Source: Candidatus Brocadia sp.
GTDB taxonomy: Bacteria > Planctomycetota > Brocadiia > Brocadiales > Brocadiaceae
Assembly (NCBI GenBank): GCA_021650915.1
Contig: CP091279.1
Span: forward strand, 2,340,001 to 2,372,000
DNA: 32,000 bases
Reading direction: 5' to 3'
Positions 11,411 through 24,459 of this stretch are shown here, piece by piece. Under the pieces are notes generated by a model. It did not search any database. It worked only from the letters and a program-made list of their open reading frames with translations, and was not told the DNA's origin. The translations under genes and the position numbers were made by a program. Positions within the stretch are counted from its first letter, which is position 1; the number at the start of each line of letters is the position of its first letter.

Positions 11411-12637
11411 CTATTGGTGTACTAGCTGAGGTTTTAGGTACCCATAACCTCCAAAAAGTAATACGTCAATTTCTTTTGGTATAAAACTTTTACTAAAATT
11501 ATGCGATTTATTCGGGCCGTGACACGACTGACATGTCACCAAATCCTTAGAAATCAAACCCTGTTGACGCAACTCCATAACCTTACCAAAAATCGACCCC
11601 TTGGCTATATTTAACTGAGCATGTTCTGGTCCGCCAATGTGGCATTTTTCGCAGGCATCGGATGCCCTTGCCTCAGTTACCGAGAATTTGTGACTTGGAT
11701 GACAGGCATCACAACTGCCGCCAACTCTATCAAAATCGTAGCTCAGACTTAACTTATGACACCCCTTGCAATCTTTAATATGCAACAATCTTGTACTAAT
11801 CACATCGAACTTACTGGTAACGGCAACAGGGTGGCCTTGGAGATGCTTGCTTTCACGGAAATCAAGGTACTGATTCTGATGGCACTCACCACAGGTACTT
11901 GCAGAAACATGACCACGTTTCTTTGCAATTAACCGATGGTCGTTTCCGTGACACGTGACACACGTCACACCCTTCACCGCGTGAACACCTTTTGTCCATT
12001 CCTTCACAACATCAGGAGTGGCCATCTTATGGCAAGCCAGACAGTCAACCTCTTCGTAGGTACCATATGGTTTGATCTTCCTTGCTGCATAAGCCTTAAA
12101 CAAATCGCCCGGCATGTGTGGATGAACCACACCAAGATGGCAATCTGTGCAGGTCAATTTTTCAAGCGCTACACCATTGTAAACTTCAGTGCGATGTTTA
12201 TTGCTTTTTAAGACATATTCAATATGGGATTTGTCTTTTGTAAAACCTTCTGAATGGCAGCGGATACAGTTCCCATTTAAAATTTCCAAACTGTCTTCGG
12301 CTATTTCAATGAATGCACCATCGCTATATGCCTGGAATGAATGCATCAAAGAATCATGCGTTCCATCGCTGAGTTTTGCGTGGGCATAGCCTTTGAGCCC
12401 TGGACCAACATGACAAGCGTGACAATTTTCGACATGTTCATTATGATGTTTTGATGCCTTAAAAGAATCATAATGGATTTTCATTTCATGGCAACTAGCG
12501 CAAAACTCACTTTTTTCTGAATAATGATATACCTTATGAATCGTAACGAAAAAAACTGCTAGCGCAATTATAGCAAAAAAGCCTACAAGCTTTTTTCTTT
12601 TCTGAATAAATTCTAACACCTGCTTCAACCGCTCCAT
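11411..12637 (-). CDS. membrane-anchored multihaem cytochrome c, 11 CxxCH motifs, NrfH/NapC-like N-terminus
   Basis: 408-aa ORF with N-terminal TM helix (LVGFFAIIALAVFFVTI). Eleven CxxCH motifs: CASCH, CHACH, CIRCH, CTDCH, CLACH, CVTCH, CGECH, CKGCH, CDACH, CEKCH, CQSCH. The first is CASCHEM (the CxxCHxM form I recall from NrfH haem 1). Confidence 0.9.
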   Translation of the reverse strand: MERLKQVLEFIQKRKKLVGFFAIIALAVFFVTIHKVYHYSEKSEFCASCHEMKIHYDSFKASKHHNEHVENCHACHVGPGLKGYAHAKLSDGTHDSLMHSFQAYSDGAFIEIAEDSLEILNGNCIRCHSEGFTKDKSHIEYVLKSNKHRTEVYNGVALEKLTCTDCHLGVVHPHMPGDLFKAYAARKIKPYGTYEEVDCLACHKMATPDVVKEWTKGVHAVKGVTCVTCHGNDHRLIAKKRGHVSASTCGECHQNQYLDFRESKHLQGHPVAVTSKFDVISTRLLHIKDCKGCHKLSLSYDFDRVGGSCDACHPSHKFSVTEARASDACEKCHIGGPEHAQLNIAKGSIFGKVMELRQQGLISKDLVTCQSCHGPNKSHNFSKSFIPKEIDVLLFGGYGYLKPQLVHQ

Positions 12638-12994
12638 ACACTCCTCCTAAATTTCTTTTGACGGCAGTTAACCTTCATTATGTATCTCAGATATTTAATT
12701 AATAATTCTAGTATATAGACACGTTAGTTACGACTCATGACAGCGGTAGCAATTATACCATTATTACACTATAAATGACATCTACATGTTTTCGTTATTA
12801 ATGTGTTATTGTACTAGAATATCAACCCTTTTCCTAATGCAAAACATTAACTAGCTATATTCAACAAATTTAGAATAAAATAAAGCTCTGAAATCCTACC
12901 ATAAAATTTTTACATGTTCAAGTTATTTTTTAATTGGTCACGAATTCTCTTTCTTGGAAAAAGAAATCATGTCTCCATAAAAACAGTTTCCCAC

Positions 12995-13014
12995 ATATTA
13001 ATCGTCTCATAATA
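12995..13014. repeat. 20-bp repeat ATATTAATCGTCTCATAATA, left copy
   Basis: Perfect inverted match to 19240-19259. Lies where the AT-rich cytochrome upstream region gives way to intron-derived sequence. Confidence 0.85.
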
Positions 13015-13029
13015 GAACACACATTAAGC

Positions 13030-14723
13030 TGTCCGTTTAGTGCTTCAATATTGGAGGATGGCGTGCCTTGAAGTATGGGATACCTAAGTGGTTGAAAATA
13101 TCACCTCTGCGAGCCGAAATCCAAGCTGTATGAGATGGTGACGGACGACTGGCTCTCACAGGTCTGTCTTTGAAGTCGTCAGCAGTGCTCATAATAGTTT
13201 CTGGTGTGTACCAGGAATGAAGGGGCATAACCGTAGTAGAGTTGATGAAACGTGGTAGATTGAATACGTTCCATGAGAAAAGAGACTCTTTGCATGGGCA
13301 AGTAGTAGCAAGAGCCTCTCTTGTTTTGCCTCTGTCAGGAGGAATCTCGACTCAGGAAACACGATTGACAAGTCTATTATCCGGAATCAATCAAAAGGAA
13401 CATATCGGGAGATGCTTAAGTATCATTCTTTAAGAGACAAGGTATTCAGTCTGAGAAACCTTTATGCGGCTTTTGGGCACGTAAAGAAGAATAAAGGCAA
13501 GGCTGGTCTCGACAGGGTAAGTATTAAGCAGTTTGAAAGTGACCTTGAGAATAATCTACAAGCTATTCACAAGGAACTGAAAACCGCCATATACAACCCT
13601 GCGCCCGTCTTAAGGGTCTACATTCCCAAAGGCAGGCATGACAAGAGACCTCTTGGCATTCCCATTGTCAAGGACAGGGTAGTACAGCAGGCGTTCAGAC
13701 AAATCATAGAGCCAATATTCGAGAAAGAATTCTCAGATAACAGCTTTGGATTTCGTCCAAACAGATGCTGTCATGATGCTATCAAACGGATTGAACAGTA
13801 TAAGCAGCAAGGGTATCGGAACATTTTGGACGCCGATATAAAGGCGTTCTATGATACCATACCTCACAAGCTTATCATGAACTCCTTGCGTGAGAAAATT
13901 GCTGACGGATGGGTTTTGAACAGTATCGAGAACATGCTCAAGGCAGGGGTCATGGAGAACGGCATCGTGCATGAGACAAATCAAGGCACTCCGCAAGGAG
14001 GCGTCATATCTCCCTTGCTTGCAAACCTTATCGGTGACATCATCGACAAGGAGCTTGAAAAGGCAGGATATAAATTTGTCCGCTATGCCGATGACTTCGT
14101 TGTCATGACTAAAACAAAAGAAGAACTCCCTGCCGCCCTTCAGTACGTCAAAGAAATCATCGAAGGGAAACTTGAAATGAAGCTGAGCGAGGATAAAACC
14201 AGGCTCACCAACTTCAAACGAGGCTTCCGGTTTCTCGGATATAATTTCATGGGCAAGAACAAGGGTATAAGCATGAAATCCCTGGACAAACTCAAGGACG
14301 CCGTCAGAGACATCACCAAACGCACACAAGGCGTCAACCTGCAAGCCGTCATTGATACATTAAATCCTGCCATAAGGGGACATGTCAACTATTTTCGGCT
14401 GGGCAATGTACAAACGGTATATCGCTCGTCAGACTGCTGGGTACGCATGAGACTGAGAAGTTTCAAGTTTTCGAGAAAATGGAAAACTGACAACAAACGT
14501 TTCCCGGTACACCGATTCTTTAAGATGGGGTTACTCTCATTTGAAAGAGAATTTCTTAAGGCACGTGCAAAGGCATGATAGTTTACTTTTCTCTGCTCCA
14601 GAGCAACACTATGGGGTCGCTAACTACGGGAAAGCCGTATGGTTTAAAAGGATACTTTGTCACGTTGTCCAAAGTATCTGGCGACGATTGGGGGTTGGAG
14701 GCGATTCGCCTCCTTCCTACCAG
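13030..14723 (+). mobile_element. group II intron remnant encoding an RT/maturase (5' boundary uncertain; domain V collapsed; domain VI cut by an IS)
   Basis: RT ORF at 13412-14578. Downstream, AAGCCGTATGGTTT (14632-14645) looks like the two ends of a domain V with the middle missing. A DVI-like hairpin GGAGGCG-ATT-CGCCTCC (14697-14713) followed by TTCCTACCAG resembles the DVI at 24424-24459. Only ~380 nt of non-AT-rich sequence precede the ORF. Confidence 0.65.
13412..14578 (+). CDS. group II intron reverse transcriptase/maturase (no endonuclease domain)
   Basis: 388-aa ORF. RT blocks RPLGIPIVKDRVVQQA, FGFRPNRCCHDA, GTPQGGVISPLLANL, VRYADDFVVM (YADD), then X/maturase-like LNPAIRGHVNYFRLGN. 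Confidence 0.9.
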   Translation: MLKYHSLRDKVFSLRNLYAAFGHVKKNKGKAGLDRVSIKQFESDLENNLQAIHKELKTAIYNPAPVLRVYIPKGRHDKRPLGIPIVKDRVVQQAFRQIIEPIFEKEFSDNSFGFRPNRCCHDAIKRIEQYKQQGYRNILDADIKAFYDTIPHKLIMNSLREKIADGWVLNSIENMLKAGVMENGIVHETNQGTPQGGVISPLLANLIGDIIDKELEKAGYKFVRYADDFVVMTKTKEELPAALQYVKEIIEGKLEMKLSEDKTRLTNFKRGFRFLGYNFMGKNKGISMKSLDKLKDAVRDITKRTQGVNLQAVIDTLNPAIRGHVNYFRLGNVQTVYRSSDCWVRMRLRSFKFSRKWKTDNKRFPVHRFFKMGLLSFEREFLKARAKA

Positions 14724-14802
14724 CTAACCCGACTTTCGCAATTCGAGGGGTATACAACCCGCTAAGCCAGGAAAATCAAGGGGTCATGTAAAAAGGTCGG
14801 CA

Positions 14803-16801
14803 CTACAGGCCGACCTGTCCGGATGCGTAAACCTTGGGCGGCGGTTGTTCAGGAAGCGTTAATCCCAACTGCGCCAAAAGGAGTAAAACGTCCTTCTCCG
14901 GCTGGGTATAACGGCTCATGACAATATGACGGCCATCCGTGGTCGGTAAATGAACGTCTATCATTTGAATGCCCGACAGTTTTTCCAAAATCGCTTCAGA
15001 CGTCAGCCCTCCGGCCCTCCCCGCGCAAGATTGCGCAGTGTCGTGTGGAGACAAAAAGCCAAAAAGGAAACAAAGATATGGGCTTCAATTCTCCGTTCCA
15101 ATTGATGCCATAGGGGGCGGACGGAAAGAGACCCCTTCAAGTCCTTAAATGCCTGTTCTATCCGCGTCAACAGCAAATAATTTTCCCAGACGGTTTCTGG
15201 CGCGGCGGCCTGCATGTTGGAACGAAGCAAATAACGCCCCTCGCGCCGATACGCCTGCCTCAGGCGTTCCCGATCCAAACTGAACCGGAACGTATTCTCA
15301 TTGACCGGTTCCTGCGGTTTGGGAATGGAGATCGTGACCAGTCTGTAGTCTCGTCCGGCTTCTTTCTTTAACGCGCCAATATGCATGAGCAGGTCATCGC
15401 GCGTGAGGGCTTTTCGATTGCGAAGTTCGCGCAGGCCCATCCACAAACGTCTGAGTCTGCGCCTACGCATGGCACGCTCCTTAGACACCCGGTCATGGCT
15501 TTCCACGTAAACGTAAAACTCCGATTCCTGCCGAAGAACTTTCACGCGGACACTCTCCCTCGCCTGCATCCAGGTTTGTTCGAGCAACGGTTTTTCTACT
15601 CGCGTCAAATGTCCCTTCGGAGTCCCAACCAAATAATCAATCCCGCGCTCACGCATCTTTTCCAACATCTCCTCCGTTGGAATACCGCGATCCATAAGCC
15701 AGGTGCGCCGGAATTTCCCATACTGCTTTTCAATCCGATCCAGAAATTCCTCCAGCGTTGCGGTGTCTCTGGTATTGCCCGGATACACTTCGTAGGCCAC
15801 GGGAAATCCTTCCGGCGTTAACACCAATGCCACTACCACCTGCACGCAATCCGAACGTTTGTCCCGGCTATATCCAAACCGTTTCTTACTCCCCGATCCA
15901 GTCGGAGGTGGGTCACTTTCAAAATACGTACTCGTCAAATCATACAGCAGCACATCGTACTTCGCCCCAAAGAGTTTTCCCCACTTCTCCTTTAAATAGG
16001 CAAACAGCTCGTCCCGATGCTCAAGCAACAAATCCAAACAACGATACGCCTTGTCCTTCTGCGCCAGGGAATAATCCTCTCCCAGCAGATCGCCTGTTGC
16101 GCTCCGCACGTACCACTCACGGTGAAAACGAAATTCGCTTCCCGGATCGATCAACCGGTAACAGACAAGCGCCTTCAGTATATTCAACCAGCTTGTCCCC
16201 TTCCGGCTTGACGGCAGACGCATCCTCCAGAATGTGTCCAGTTCCAGCATATTCCATAGCGCGGCACAGCCGCAACCAAATTTCCTTTATGAAAGCGGGG
16301 AGATTGCTTCGGAAAAGGCCCTCGCAATGACACCGGCCATGCACTTTGATGGTACACTGCATGTTGTCATTGCGAGTGAAGCGAAGCAATCTTTCACTCA
16401 TAAAAAACGGTACCTCCTGAAAGGGGTTTGTGAAAAAACTCACAGAAAAAAGAAGTTTTTATACAGTAATACTATACATACAATCCCAACCAGCTTGCTC
16501 CCCACTCCCGCGGATGGCGCAGCTCTATTTTGTCCAACCGCACCCGAACGGTCTCACCATCCGGTATCGGCATGGCTTCCCGGTCATCCGGAAACAATGC
16601 CAGTTGTCTTGGCCTGGGTTCTTTACCCGACACCGCCTCTATCGTCCGAACCCACCCAGCCCGTTGATTGTCATTGAGTTCTCCCAAAGAGAGAACCTGC
16701 CGCTGCACCACCCTTCTTCCGCTGACCCGGCGGTTCTCTACCATGCTCCAATAACGGTGGGTTTTTCCATCTTTCGTTCGTGTCTTTTCCCGGAGAAGCA
16801 T
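14803..16801 (-). pseudogene. IS1634-like DDE transposase, disrupted (insert plus frameshift)
   Basis: Three ORF pieces. 16472-16852 is the N-terminus, likely true start MLLREKTRTKDGKTHRYWSMVENRR at 16801. 15003-16250 is the DDE core. 14803-15054 is the C-terminus ...LTSEAILEKLSGIQMIDVHLPTTDGR.... The first two are separated by a ~218-bp insert; the last two overlap in different frames around a G-rich run near 15003-15054. Confidence 0.8.
16260..16477. repeat. ~218-bp non-coding insert inside the transposase gene, carrying an inverted pair of GATTGCTTCG...TCGCAATGACA modules (MITE-like)
   Basis: Transposase reading ...WLGLY (ends 16478) resumes as LWNMLELDTFW (from 16259); the two join into the pattern WLxLxLW. 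Inside the insert, GATTGCTTCGGAAAAGGCCCTCGCAATGACA (16302-16332) faces TGTCATTGCGAGTGAAGCGAAGCAATC (16365-16391). Boundaries inferred from the protein, +/- a few nt. Confidence 0.55.
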
Positions 16802-16961
16802 GCGAGCATTTTCGCACTTCCCCCTGCATGCGTCAAGAGGGTAGGTCGGCACTACAAGCCGTTTTGAAAATTCACCCCTTGAATATCACGGGTTTCCTGG
16901 CGACTCTTGCCCAAAAATAAACTTTTTTGGGCGCGAATTGCGAAAGTCGGGCTAAACCAGG

Positions 16962-17360
16962 GTGAGTATTACGAAAGAGAATTACCTTTTTATGAATTAT
17001 ACCTATCAAAACCCGGAAGATAATCGCGGAAATGACCTGCCGTTTGTTGCAAGACACTACGGCAACTTTGGAGTGAACGCGCGGCCCTGCAAATATATCA
17101 ACGCCAACCTGAGCGCCTTTTTCAGCGGAAATCGGTCCAGGGACGATGACGATCCTGATGAAGAGAGGGACGACTTGTCATCGTATGCCTTGTTAAATCT
17201 CTCTCTCATCGCCAAGGAATTCTTTAAGAGCATGGAGGTGCAGGGAACGGTATTCAACCTGCTCGACAAAGACTATAGCGACCCCGGTCCTCCCGAAGTG
17301 TCCGACGACCTGCCCAGGCCCGGAAGGACATTTTTTGTTGGACTGAGCTACCAGTTTTAG
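16962..17360 (+). pseudogene. 3' fragment of a TonB-dependent receptor / outer-membrane beta-barrel gene
   Basis: Encodes only ~130 aa: ...NYLFMNYTYQNPEDNRGNDLPFVARHYGNFGVN...NLLDKDYSDP...PRPGRTFFVGLSYQF, with terminal aromatic F typical of OMP C-termini. No plug or barrel N-terminal part upstream. Confidence 0.65.
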
Positions 17361-17415
17361 TACCAAAGGAGAAACCCACACTCTCTGAGTGTGGGTTTCT
17401 CCTTTGGTACTAAAA
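17355..17415. other. 27-bp perfect stem-loop overlapping the stop codon of the receptor fragment
   Basis: TTTTAGTACCAAAGGAGAAACCCACAC (17355-17381), loop TCTCTGA, GTGTGGGTTTCTCCTTTGGTACTAAAA (17389-17415). No U-tract after the stem, so not a canonical intrinsic terminator. Confidence 0.7.
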
Positions 17416-17450
17416 TCGATAGAATTGTGCTGAAATAGTGAATATATTTC

Positions 17451-23921: not shown

Positions 23922-24459
23922 GAGAGTGGTGAAGCCCAGACCTTTTTGGAAAAAGAAGGAAGTCTATCAAGCTGAGGGGTAGCGTGATAAAGCGATGATA
24001 GGGAGCAATGGGTGGTTGGAGACGGAATGGCAGGAAGACAAGGTGCATGAATCAGGGATACCTGACAGAGGGAGTGACAAAGTCAGGAGTCAGAGACTTC
24101 ATAAGAGCGAAGAAGCATCGTAATGGATGTGGAGCGAAGGGAGGCAGGAAGGTGGAGGTATGAAGTGGGTAAGCTGGGAAGACAAACCAAGGTGAGTGGC
24201 AGAAATGCCTAAACAAGTTGGAGAAATCCGTAGAAACGGATTTGAACTTGGCTTATAGCGGACTGCCTGTTGACGGCTTGCATAAGGTGAATGATGAGAA
24301 TCGATGTCATCATTATGAGGTATGAATTGTTCACGTATCCGCAATTTATATTTTCAACGGTCAATCCCGAAGGGGTAACCACTGACTGGAGAGCCGTATG
24401 CGGGAGATCCGCCTGTATGGTTCGGAGGGAGGGGAGGCGAAAGCCTTCCCTACCCCTAT
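23922..24459 (+). mobile_element. ORF-less group II intron (or 3' ~540 nt of one; 5' end abuts the IS630 remnant)
   Basis: Canonical domain V and VI at the 3' end (see next feature). Purine-rich structured-looking upstream sequence without any RT-like ORF in six frames. Short hairpin AATGATGA/TCATCATT (24290-24314) where domain IV would be. No clear GUGYG at the left edge. Confidence 0.7.
24391..24459 (+). ncRNA. group II intron domains V and VI
   Basis: DV is GAGCCGTATGCGGGAGATCCGCCTGTATGGTTC (24391-24423): AGC triad, 9-bp lower helix with G-U pairs, 2-nt CU bulge on the 3' strand, 4-bp upper helix. DVI is GGAGGGAGGGGAGGC-GAAA-GCCTTCCCTACCCCTAT: 9-bp helix, GAAA loop, unpaired A at 24452 seven nt before the terminal ...CTAT (24459). 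Confidence 0.85.

Follow-up and report, generated by a model that had tools for sequence, protein, structure and literature searches.

A decayed group II intron copy in a Brocadiaceae anammox genome and the putative branched domain V of its lineage

Does the group II intron that begins at position 13061 of the analyzed DNA still carry a domain V (DV), the catalytic heart of its ribozyme, or has this domain collapsed? The window, as we call the whole stretch of 32,000 nucleotides (nt), comes from Candidatus Brocadia sp. (assembly GCA_021650915.1, contig CP091279.1, positions 2,340,001 to 2,372,000). The original prediction described an intron with an intact reverse transcriptase (RT) open reading frame (ORF) and a DV reduced to the remnant AAGCCGTATGGTTT by a 19-nt deletion between two GTATG repeats, followed by an unrelated hairpin. 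We find that the window element is a decayed copy of an abundant, recently mobile, endonuclease-less group II intron of a Brocadiaceae anammox host. Its tail is, in our judgment, probably a complete DV in a lineage-specific branched form, a three-way junction, and not a collapsed one. The two features that define the copy are the following.

13061..14725, forward strand: group II intron copy, 1665 nt, with the 5' end GCGUGCC and the 3' end ...CCUACCAGCU
13412..14578, forward strand: RT/maturase ORF, intact, 388 amino acids (aa), without an endonuclease domain

The predicted RT-encoding intron with an uninterrupted ORF was borne out, as the ORF matches RVT_1 (8.6e-41) and GIIM (5.8e-15), contains the YADD motif, and differs from the family consensus at 4 residues. 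Compared with the family reference of 2004 nt, the copy lacks 330 nt and shows small differences. Its ends were set by a nested self-insertion and by 23 sister copies, which moves the intron start from the predicted 13030 to 13061.

A search of the whole host genome (4.05 Mb, one contig) returned 74 matching pieces. With a full-length sister as the BLAST query, these sort into 23 full-length copies (~2004 nt) and ~15 fragments, 98-100% identical to the reference copy and occupying 21 distinct flank pairs. An intact 388-aa ORF with YADD is retained in 17 of the 23 full-length copies. One copy is nested in another, and the intron ends are thereby GCGTGCC...CCTACCAGCT (GCGTGCC...CCAGCT); nested copies lie at G000 1850144-1854150 and 434880-437809, and one is also present in L016. 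The intron's own RT ORF holds the target TTCGAGAAAG/AATTC (a slash marks the junction), which has been hit both in this genome and in Brocadia pituitae.

A simple target-site rule emerges from the flanks. The 5' exons end in GAGRRRG at 23 junctions, and position +1 is an A in 20 of these 23. The complement CUUUCUC is found in a domain I loop (reference 213-219) and is the candidate exon-binding site 1 (EBS1), so that the family shows EBS1 pairing with an intron-binding site 1 (IBS1) of ~7 nt. Empty sites are preserved in the TonB-receptor paralog (GAGATGG/AAACCAGG) and in copies of the repeat that forms the 5' flank of the window intron (GAGAAGG/AAAGCAT). We infer mobility from the 23 near-identical copies, the empty sites, and the nested self-insertions. 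The family would spread by reverse splicing, with EBS1 (CUUUCUC) pairing with GAGRRRG exons.

The region between the RT ORF and the intron's 3' end folds into the following parts, all on the forward strand.

14616..14620, forward strand: 5' strand of DV helix P1, GUCGC, in which CGC (14618-20) is invariant in 21/21 tails
14621..14645, forward strand: continuous DV hairpin, comprising P2, the U.G wobble, the upper helix, the loop, and the bulge
14621-24 / 14642-45, forward strand: P2, inside the continuous DV hairpin
U14625.G14641, forward strand: wobble pair, invariant in 21/21 tails
14626-29 / 14635-38, forward strand: upper helix
14630-34, forward strand: 5-nt loop GAAAG
14639-40, forward strand: 2-nt bulge
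14646..14680, forward strand: insertion in the DV 3' strand, made up of the linker AAAA, hairpin B (14650-79), and G14680
14681..14685, forward strand: 3' strand of DV helix P1, GCGAC, the partner of the CGC strand
14690..14721, forward strand: domain VI (DVI), intact, with a bulged branch-site A at 14719, the 7th nt from the 3' end

The 5' strand of this DV is continuous and reads N, N-CGC, four nucleotides, U, and then the upper helix. The return path runs through the upper helix, the 2-nt bulge, the G of the U.G pair, and 4 base pairs (bp), then through the A-rich linker and hairpin B, and only then into GCG-N-N. The DV becomes a three-way junction because the insertion lies in the 3' strand directly beside the triad helix. 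This insertion is lineage-specific; hairpin B varies between 14 and 34 nt in length across the lineage, and in the window copy its loop contains GUUGUC. The sequence AAGCCGTATGGTTT, which was correctly located downstream of the ORF (14632-14645), thus consists of the last three loop nucleotides plus the DV 3' strand.

The fold is conserved across the lineage. In an alignment of 21 tails from three subgroups, 95.2% of the cells are paired and 20 of the 32 pairs show compensatory changes. Slid controls, in which the partners were moved by 1-3 columns, gave 35-52% paired cells and 2-5 compensated pairs, and none of 500 shuffles reached the observed pairing values. RNAalifold recovers the same helices unprompted, and the single-sequence fold of the window tail has a z of -3.6. 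The CGC/GCG pairing and the U.G wobble do not vary in any of the 21 tails. DVI comprises 14 pairs, 8 of them compensated, with its bulged A as the 7th nt from the end. Further compensation is visible within the close family: UAC/GUA is replaced by UAU/AUA in L128, and compensated pairs also occur in DVI and through most of hairpin B. Within the host genome, sister tails were read for 22 of the 23 full-length copies; every one of them has the same P1-P3 core, which constitutes the DV, and the differences between sister tails are confined to hairpin B and the DVI loop. Comparison with the other genome copies had been proposed as a way to confirm the 19-nt deletion; the full-length sisters instead display this architecture as the native one. 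The predicted ~45-nt hairpin is present (14650-79), while its description as unrelated was mistaken, since it is a conserved, covarying part of the fold.

A separate observation concerns the loop of hairpin B. Its GUUGUC (14664-14669) has a complement, GACAAC, close to where the RT ORF ends (14489-14494), and two changes in relatives may be compensatory: L171 has AUUGUC with GACAAU, and L175 has GGUUG with CAACC. The ORF site of this possible kissing pairing is coding, and the distant subgroup contains no consistent partner. Hairpin B may engage in a long-range pairing with the ORF.

What identifies this structure as a DV is the correspondence of its parts to the canonical domain. Once the insertion is taken out, what remains is a lower helix of 10 bp, one of them an extra basal pair, followed by a 2-nt bulge, an upper helix of 4-5 bp, and a loop of 5 nt. 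All of the DV-defining elements are thus present, i.e., the triad helix, a 2-nt bulge five pairs above the triad, the upper helix, and the terminal loop. The CGC sits four bp below the U.G pair, which is the spacing of U9.G26 to C4 of the AGC triad in a canonical DV, and canonical relatives show GAGC-CGUG-U at the same spacing. When the canonical DV-DVI of relatives is aligned to a covariance model derived from the tails, the alignment covers its full length, and the 31 positions of the insertion are deleted. We find GUAUGGUUU to be homologous to the canonical GUAYGGUUC. The likeness of the window's AAGCC to GAGCC is due to chance, as relatives read AAAAC, AAUUC, AAGUC, or AAAUU here, and the AGCC segment is not kept in relatives (AAAACGUAUGG, AAUUCGUACGG, and AAAACAUACGG).

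We next consider how widely the branched tail is distributed. RT homologs that are 70-92% identical form a tight family in Brocadiaceae, in Omnitrophota and Chlamydiota bins, and in many metagenomes; beyond this family, RT identity falls to ~50% or less. The standard DV model, RF00029, has no match in any member of the close family. A second RF00029-negative group, at ~45% RT identity, comprises L017 (Nitrospinota), L071 (Chlamydiota), L094, and L095, while nine other relatives at 40-45% RT identity have a normal DV. The tails of both RF00029-negative groups share one architecture. The third subgroup is represented by two ~9-Mb Planctomycetota genomes of another family. The hosts of the branched tail thus include Brocadiaceae, other Planctomycetota, Omnitrophota, Chlamydiota, and Nitrospinota. 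Among 151 evenly sampled Planctomycetota genomes, 4 have the tail, with several copies in each. The intron 5' end is GCGUG in the window copy, L012, L016, and L179, and GUGUG in other relatives (GUGYG is expected).

A maximum-likelihood tree of 135 RTs was constructed, with support from the Shimodaira-Hasegawa-like approximate likelihood ratio test (SH-aLRT). A split with 97% SH-aLRT support places all 16 branched-DV entries on the same side, where they form two clades (100% and 99%) together with the long-branch entry L090. The branch states on the RT tree force only one change, indicating that the branched DV, as judged from these RTs, has one origin.

Several observations weigh against a branched DV. 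RF00029, with a gathering score of 40 bits, finds no DV in 12900-14800 at an E value of 10 or less, has no match in the full-length copy L002, and gives no match at the gathering score in 11 relatives. The only match of this model in the window is to the other intron, whose canonical DV/DVI at 24389-24459 scores 51.5 bits, in agreement with the intact DV originally predicted there at 24391-24423. The Rfam models of domains I to IV (D1-D4) fare little better, reaching only 20.1 bits for RF01998 against a gathering score of 35 in the window copy and the full-length copy. Most compensatory changes separate the three subgroups, so that the independent events are fewer than the cell counts. The triad helix has a G-C pair where canonical introns have a G.U wobble, and the first P2 position is U.U in the Brocadiaceae-type family and unpaired in 14 of the 21 tails. 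On the RT tree, L090 falls on the branched side even though it is labelled canonical. The catalytic activity of the branched DV is itself something that we infer from copy number and conservation.

Three other readings of the tail have to be set against these data. The branched structure might be real but inert, with splicing and movement depending on a canonical DV or other components supplied in trans from other introns. A DV can complement in trans in vitro, the same genome holds relics of canonical-DV introns as well as canonical introns that lack an ORF, and for an active DV both the insertion beside the triad and the G-C instead of G.U would be unusual. The CGC, the U.G pair, the position of the bulge, and the helix lengths are nevertheless invariant or compensated over three subgroups that share only ~45% RT identity and come from hosts of different phyla, which is the pattern expected of a selected catalytic element, and there is no evidence of a suitable helper in the other host genomes. 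We consider this reading unlikely. It is less probable still that only the continuous hairpin (14621-14645) is the DV, with AAC as a variant triad and with P1 and hairpin B forming a noncatalytic basal junction. That hairpin does contain by itself the GAAAG loop, an upper and a lower helix, and a 2-nt bulge, yet the AAC lies only one bp (the U.G pair) below the bulge instead of five, the CGC in P1 is the invariant strand, and it is P1 onto which the AGC helix of canonical relatives aligns. In P2, the 5' strand reads UAAC here and CCGG, CCAG, or CCGA in the other subgroups and has no triad-like conservation; the AAC was accordingly rejected as the triad.

The loss of 19 nt from a canonical DV, which would leave AAGCCGTATGGTTT and an unrelated hairpin, is refuted by these data. 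The remnant does match 12 of the 14 positions expected from the canonical DV at 24391-24423, and RF00029 is silent at the window copy. A deletion private to this copy is, however, at odds with a core that is the same in every sister tail read and with an architecture shared with other genera and phyla. The AGCC part varies, GUAYGGUUU pairs and covaries with the upstream AACUAC strand (as in the L128 change described above), and the supposedly unrelated hairpin covaries too. The complete, branched DV remains the reading that we favor, and it would be a working catalytic center in cis. The broader proposition, that an entire lineage of bacterial introns remains mobile while using a three-way-junction DV in which the strand opposite the triad is split off by a stem-loop, is one that we hold at even balance.

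If the DV is complete, what disabled the window copy? The relevant features are a deletion near the 5' end and an insertion sequence (IS) at the 3' end.

13114..13115, forward strand: junction of the 330-nt deletion, reference 55-384 being gone
14728..16951, reverse strand: IS5-like element, 2224 bp, with terminal inverted repeats CCCGACTTTCGCAATTCG
15003-16250, reverse strand: transposase ORF of the IS5-like element (DDE_Tnp_1, 1.5e-14)

The 330-nt deletion is flanked by the imperfect repeats CC-KAAATCC, is present in no other copy, and takes out most of domain I, including EBS1 (CUUUCUC, reference 213-219). The ORF is preceded by 351 nt inside the intron, rather than the ~380 nt first estimated; this is indeed too short for the 5' part of the ribozyme, and the cause is an internal deletion and not the 5' truncation that had been proposed. 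At the other end, the IS5-like element is bordered by a perfect 4-bp duplication, CTAA, at 14724-27 and 16952-55. The duplication covers the last 2 intron nt and the first 2 exon nt, that is, the 3' splice junction. The predicted DVI-like hairpin exists and the IS follows it, but the hairpin is not cut: DVI is whole in the window copy, the CTAA duplication is intact across the junction, and the IS parts the intron from its 3' exon. Because of the domain I deletion with its loss of EBS1, the IS at the 3' junction, and two exons that are not a matching pair, the window copy very probably cannot work. The ribozyme was thus rightly predicted to be dead, for a reason that does not lie in the DV. 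Whether the window RT survives as a trans-acting protein matters little, given that the 388-aa ORF is intact in 17 other copies.

The IS5-like element is itself abundant, with at least 23 copies in the genome that fall into two size classes. The long form is 2224 bp, and the short form has only the part up to window position 16258 in common with it. Of the 7 other long copies examined, 4 have a YTAR-type duplication (CTAA or TTAA), as the window copy does. The element resembles the IS5 family in its DDE_Tnp_1 transposase, its terminal inverted repeats, and its 4-bp YTAR-type target duplication, and the family likeness is drawn from these features. It differs in having coexisting long and short variants.

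The flanks of the window copy retain a record of its history.

12996..13056, forward strand: 5' flank, formed by the initial 61 nt of a repeat that is present in at least 20 copies
16954..17360, forward strand: original 3' exon, holding the last ~130 codons of the gene for a TonB-dependent receptor (PF00593)

The repeat in the 5' flank is probably the left end of an IS. Its uninterrupted copies read ...TTGGAGAAGG/AAAGCATACG, which is an intron target site. The 3' exon was predicted to be the tail of a TonB receptor, and PF00593 is indeed found in the DNA that follows the IS. No TonB-receptor coding sequence is present upstream of the window intron. The two exons therefore come from different insertion sites, the 5' exon being the end of an IS-like repeat and the 3' exon a TonB-receptor tail. 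An intact TonB-dependent receptor ORF of ~778 codons lies on the reverse strand at G000 2315555 to ~2317900. The last ~500 nt of this paralog are 99.6% identical to window 16954-17450, indicating that the window holds a truncated duplicate of the receptor. Further upstream of the intron, the window encodes a multihaem cytochrome c of 408 aa with NapC/NirT-like and MtrC/MtrF-like domains (11411-12637, reverse strand).

Exon mismatch recurs in several copies (G000 582657-584660 and 723259-725261 and window 12996-14725). The same IS-like repeat forms the 5' flank of two intron copies and the 3' exon of a third. In its simplest reading, the mismatch suggests repeated recombination between intron copies at different sites. 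We also observed intron stubs, in which the end of the IS-like repeat is followed by just the first 13 intron nt (GCGTGCCTTGAAG) and then by unrelated DNA (G000 129187-129264, forward strand, and 3250223-3250300, reverse strand).

Among the known classes of group II introns, the lineage resembles classes E and F, which are IIB-like and have no endonuclease domain. A 5-nt DV loop is a described trait of these two classes (PMC3753933), and the loop here is GAAAG, with GAAAN or similar in relatives, both branched and canonical. Also shared with class E/F introns (Nagy et al. 2013, PMC3753933) are an RT of ~390 aa whose only domains are RT and X, a bulged A in DVI, EBS1-IBS1 targeting, retroelement behavior, and, in most relatives, a GUGYG-like 5' end in the form GUGUG. 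The differences are the linker and hairpin that interrupt the DV 3' strand beside the triad helix, the CGC triad with its G-C pairing, an intron end of CU instead of AY, and a non-ORF RNA of 837 nt. The endonuclease-less RT and the 5-nt DV loop thus would fit classes E and F, as judged by these features. The closest solved structure of the RT is that of the GsI-IIC RT (2.8e-77). Class C (IIC) ribozymes are small, ~400-450 nt without the ORF. Subtracting the 1167-nt ORF from 2004 nt leaves 837 nt of non-ORF RNA, and on this count, together with the 7-nt IBS1, an IIC-like ribozyme was rejected.

A lineage-specific extra hairpin at the otherwise rigid DV-DVI end of an active bacterial intron has a precedent in the B.c.I4-type class B introns with their "domain VII" (Stabell et al., PMC2691827; PMC4424553). 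Their added hairpin comes after DVI and displaces the 3' splice site, whereas the one described here is placed within DV and leaves the usual distance between the branch A and the 3' splice site. The DV-less degenerate organellar group II introns and group III introns (PMC4424553) are comparable only to the window copy as it was originally pictured. Those introns are immobile, host-dependent, and structurally eroded, while the lineage described here has retained intact RT ORFs and a DV with compensatory changes and is present in many near-identical copies. In the searchable literature, we found no report of an insertion inside DV or of a branched DV, and an earlier description may still exist; the literature searched likewise yielded nothing relevant on group II introns in anammox bacteria.

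The closest parallel may be found in the spliceosome. The strand break in U2-U6 has been called a "perplexing difference" from group II introns (PMC4424553). As in the U2-U6 core, i.e., the U6 internal stem-loop and helix Ib, the triad strand of the branched DV runs on into a bulged stem-loop, and the strand facing the triad does not directly continue the 3' strand of this stem-loop. The U2-U6 break presumably falls at the same helical step beside the triad as the one seen here. In the branched DV, unlike in U2-U6, both strands are part of one RNA and are joined by a hairpin. The parallel would be one of architecture and implies no evolutionary link.

Pending a functional test, the window element is best read as a dead representative of an intron lineage that is itself alive and carries a branched DV. 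No part of a group II intron is more conserved or more constrained in size than DV, the counterpart of the spliceosomal U6 stem-loop. A conserved, compensated insertion beside the triad in introns that are evidently multiplying suggests that the active site tolerates a break opposite the triad. If true, the lineage would provide a natural, testable example of a catalytic helix that tolerates the break that sets U2-U6 apart from the canonical DV. Introns with a branched DV are invisible to the standard DV model, and DV-based surveys would miss or misread them, as happened in the original prediction. For the anammox bacterium itself, the mismatched exons of the window copy point to intron copies as substrates for genome rearrangement.

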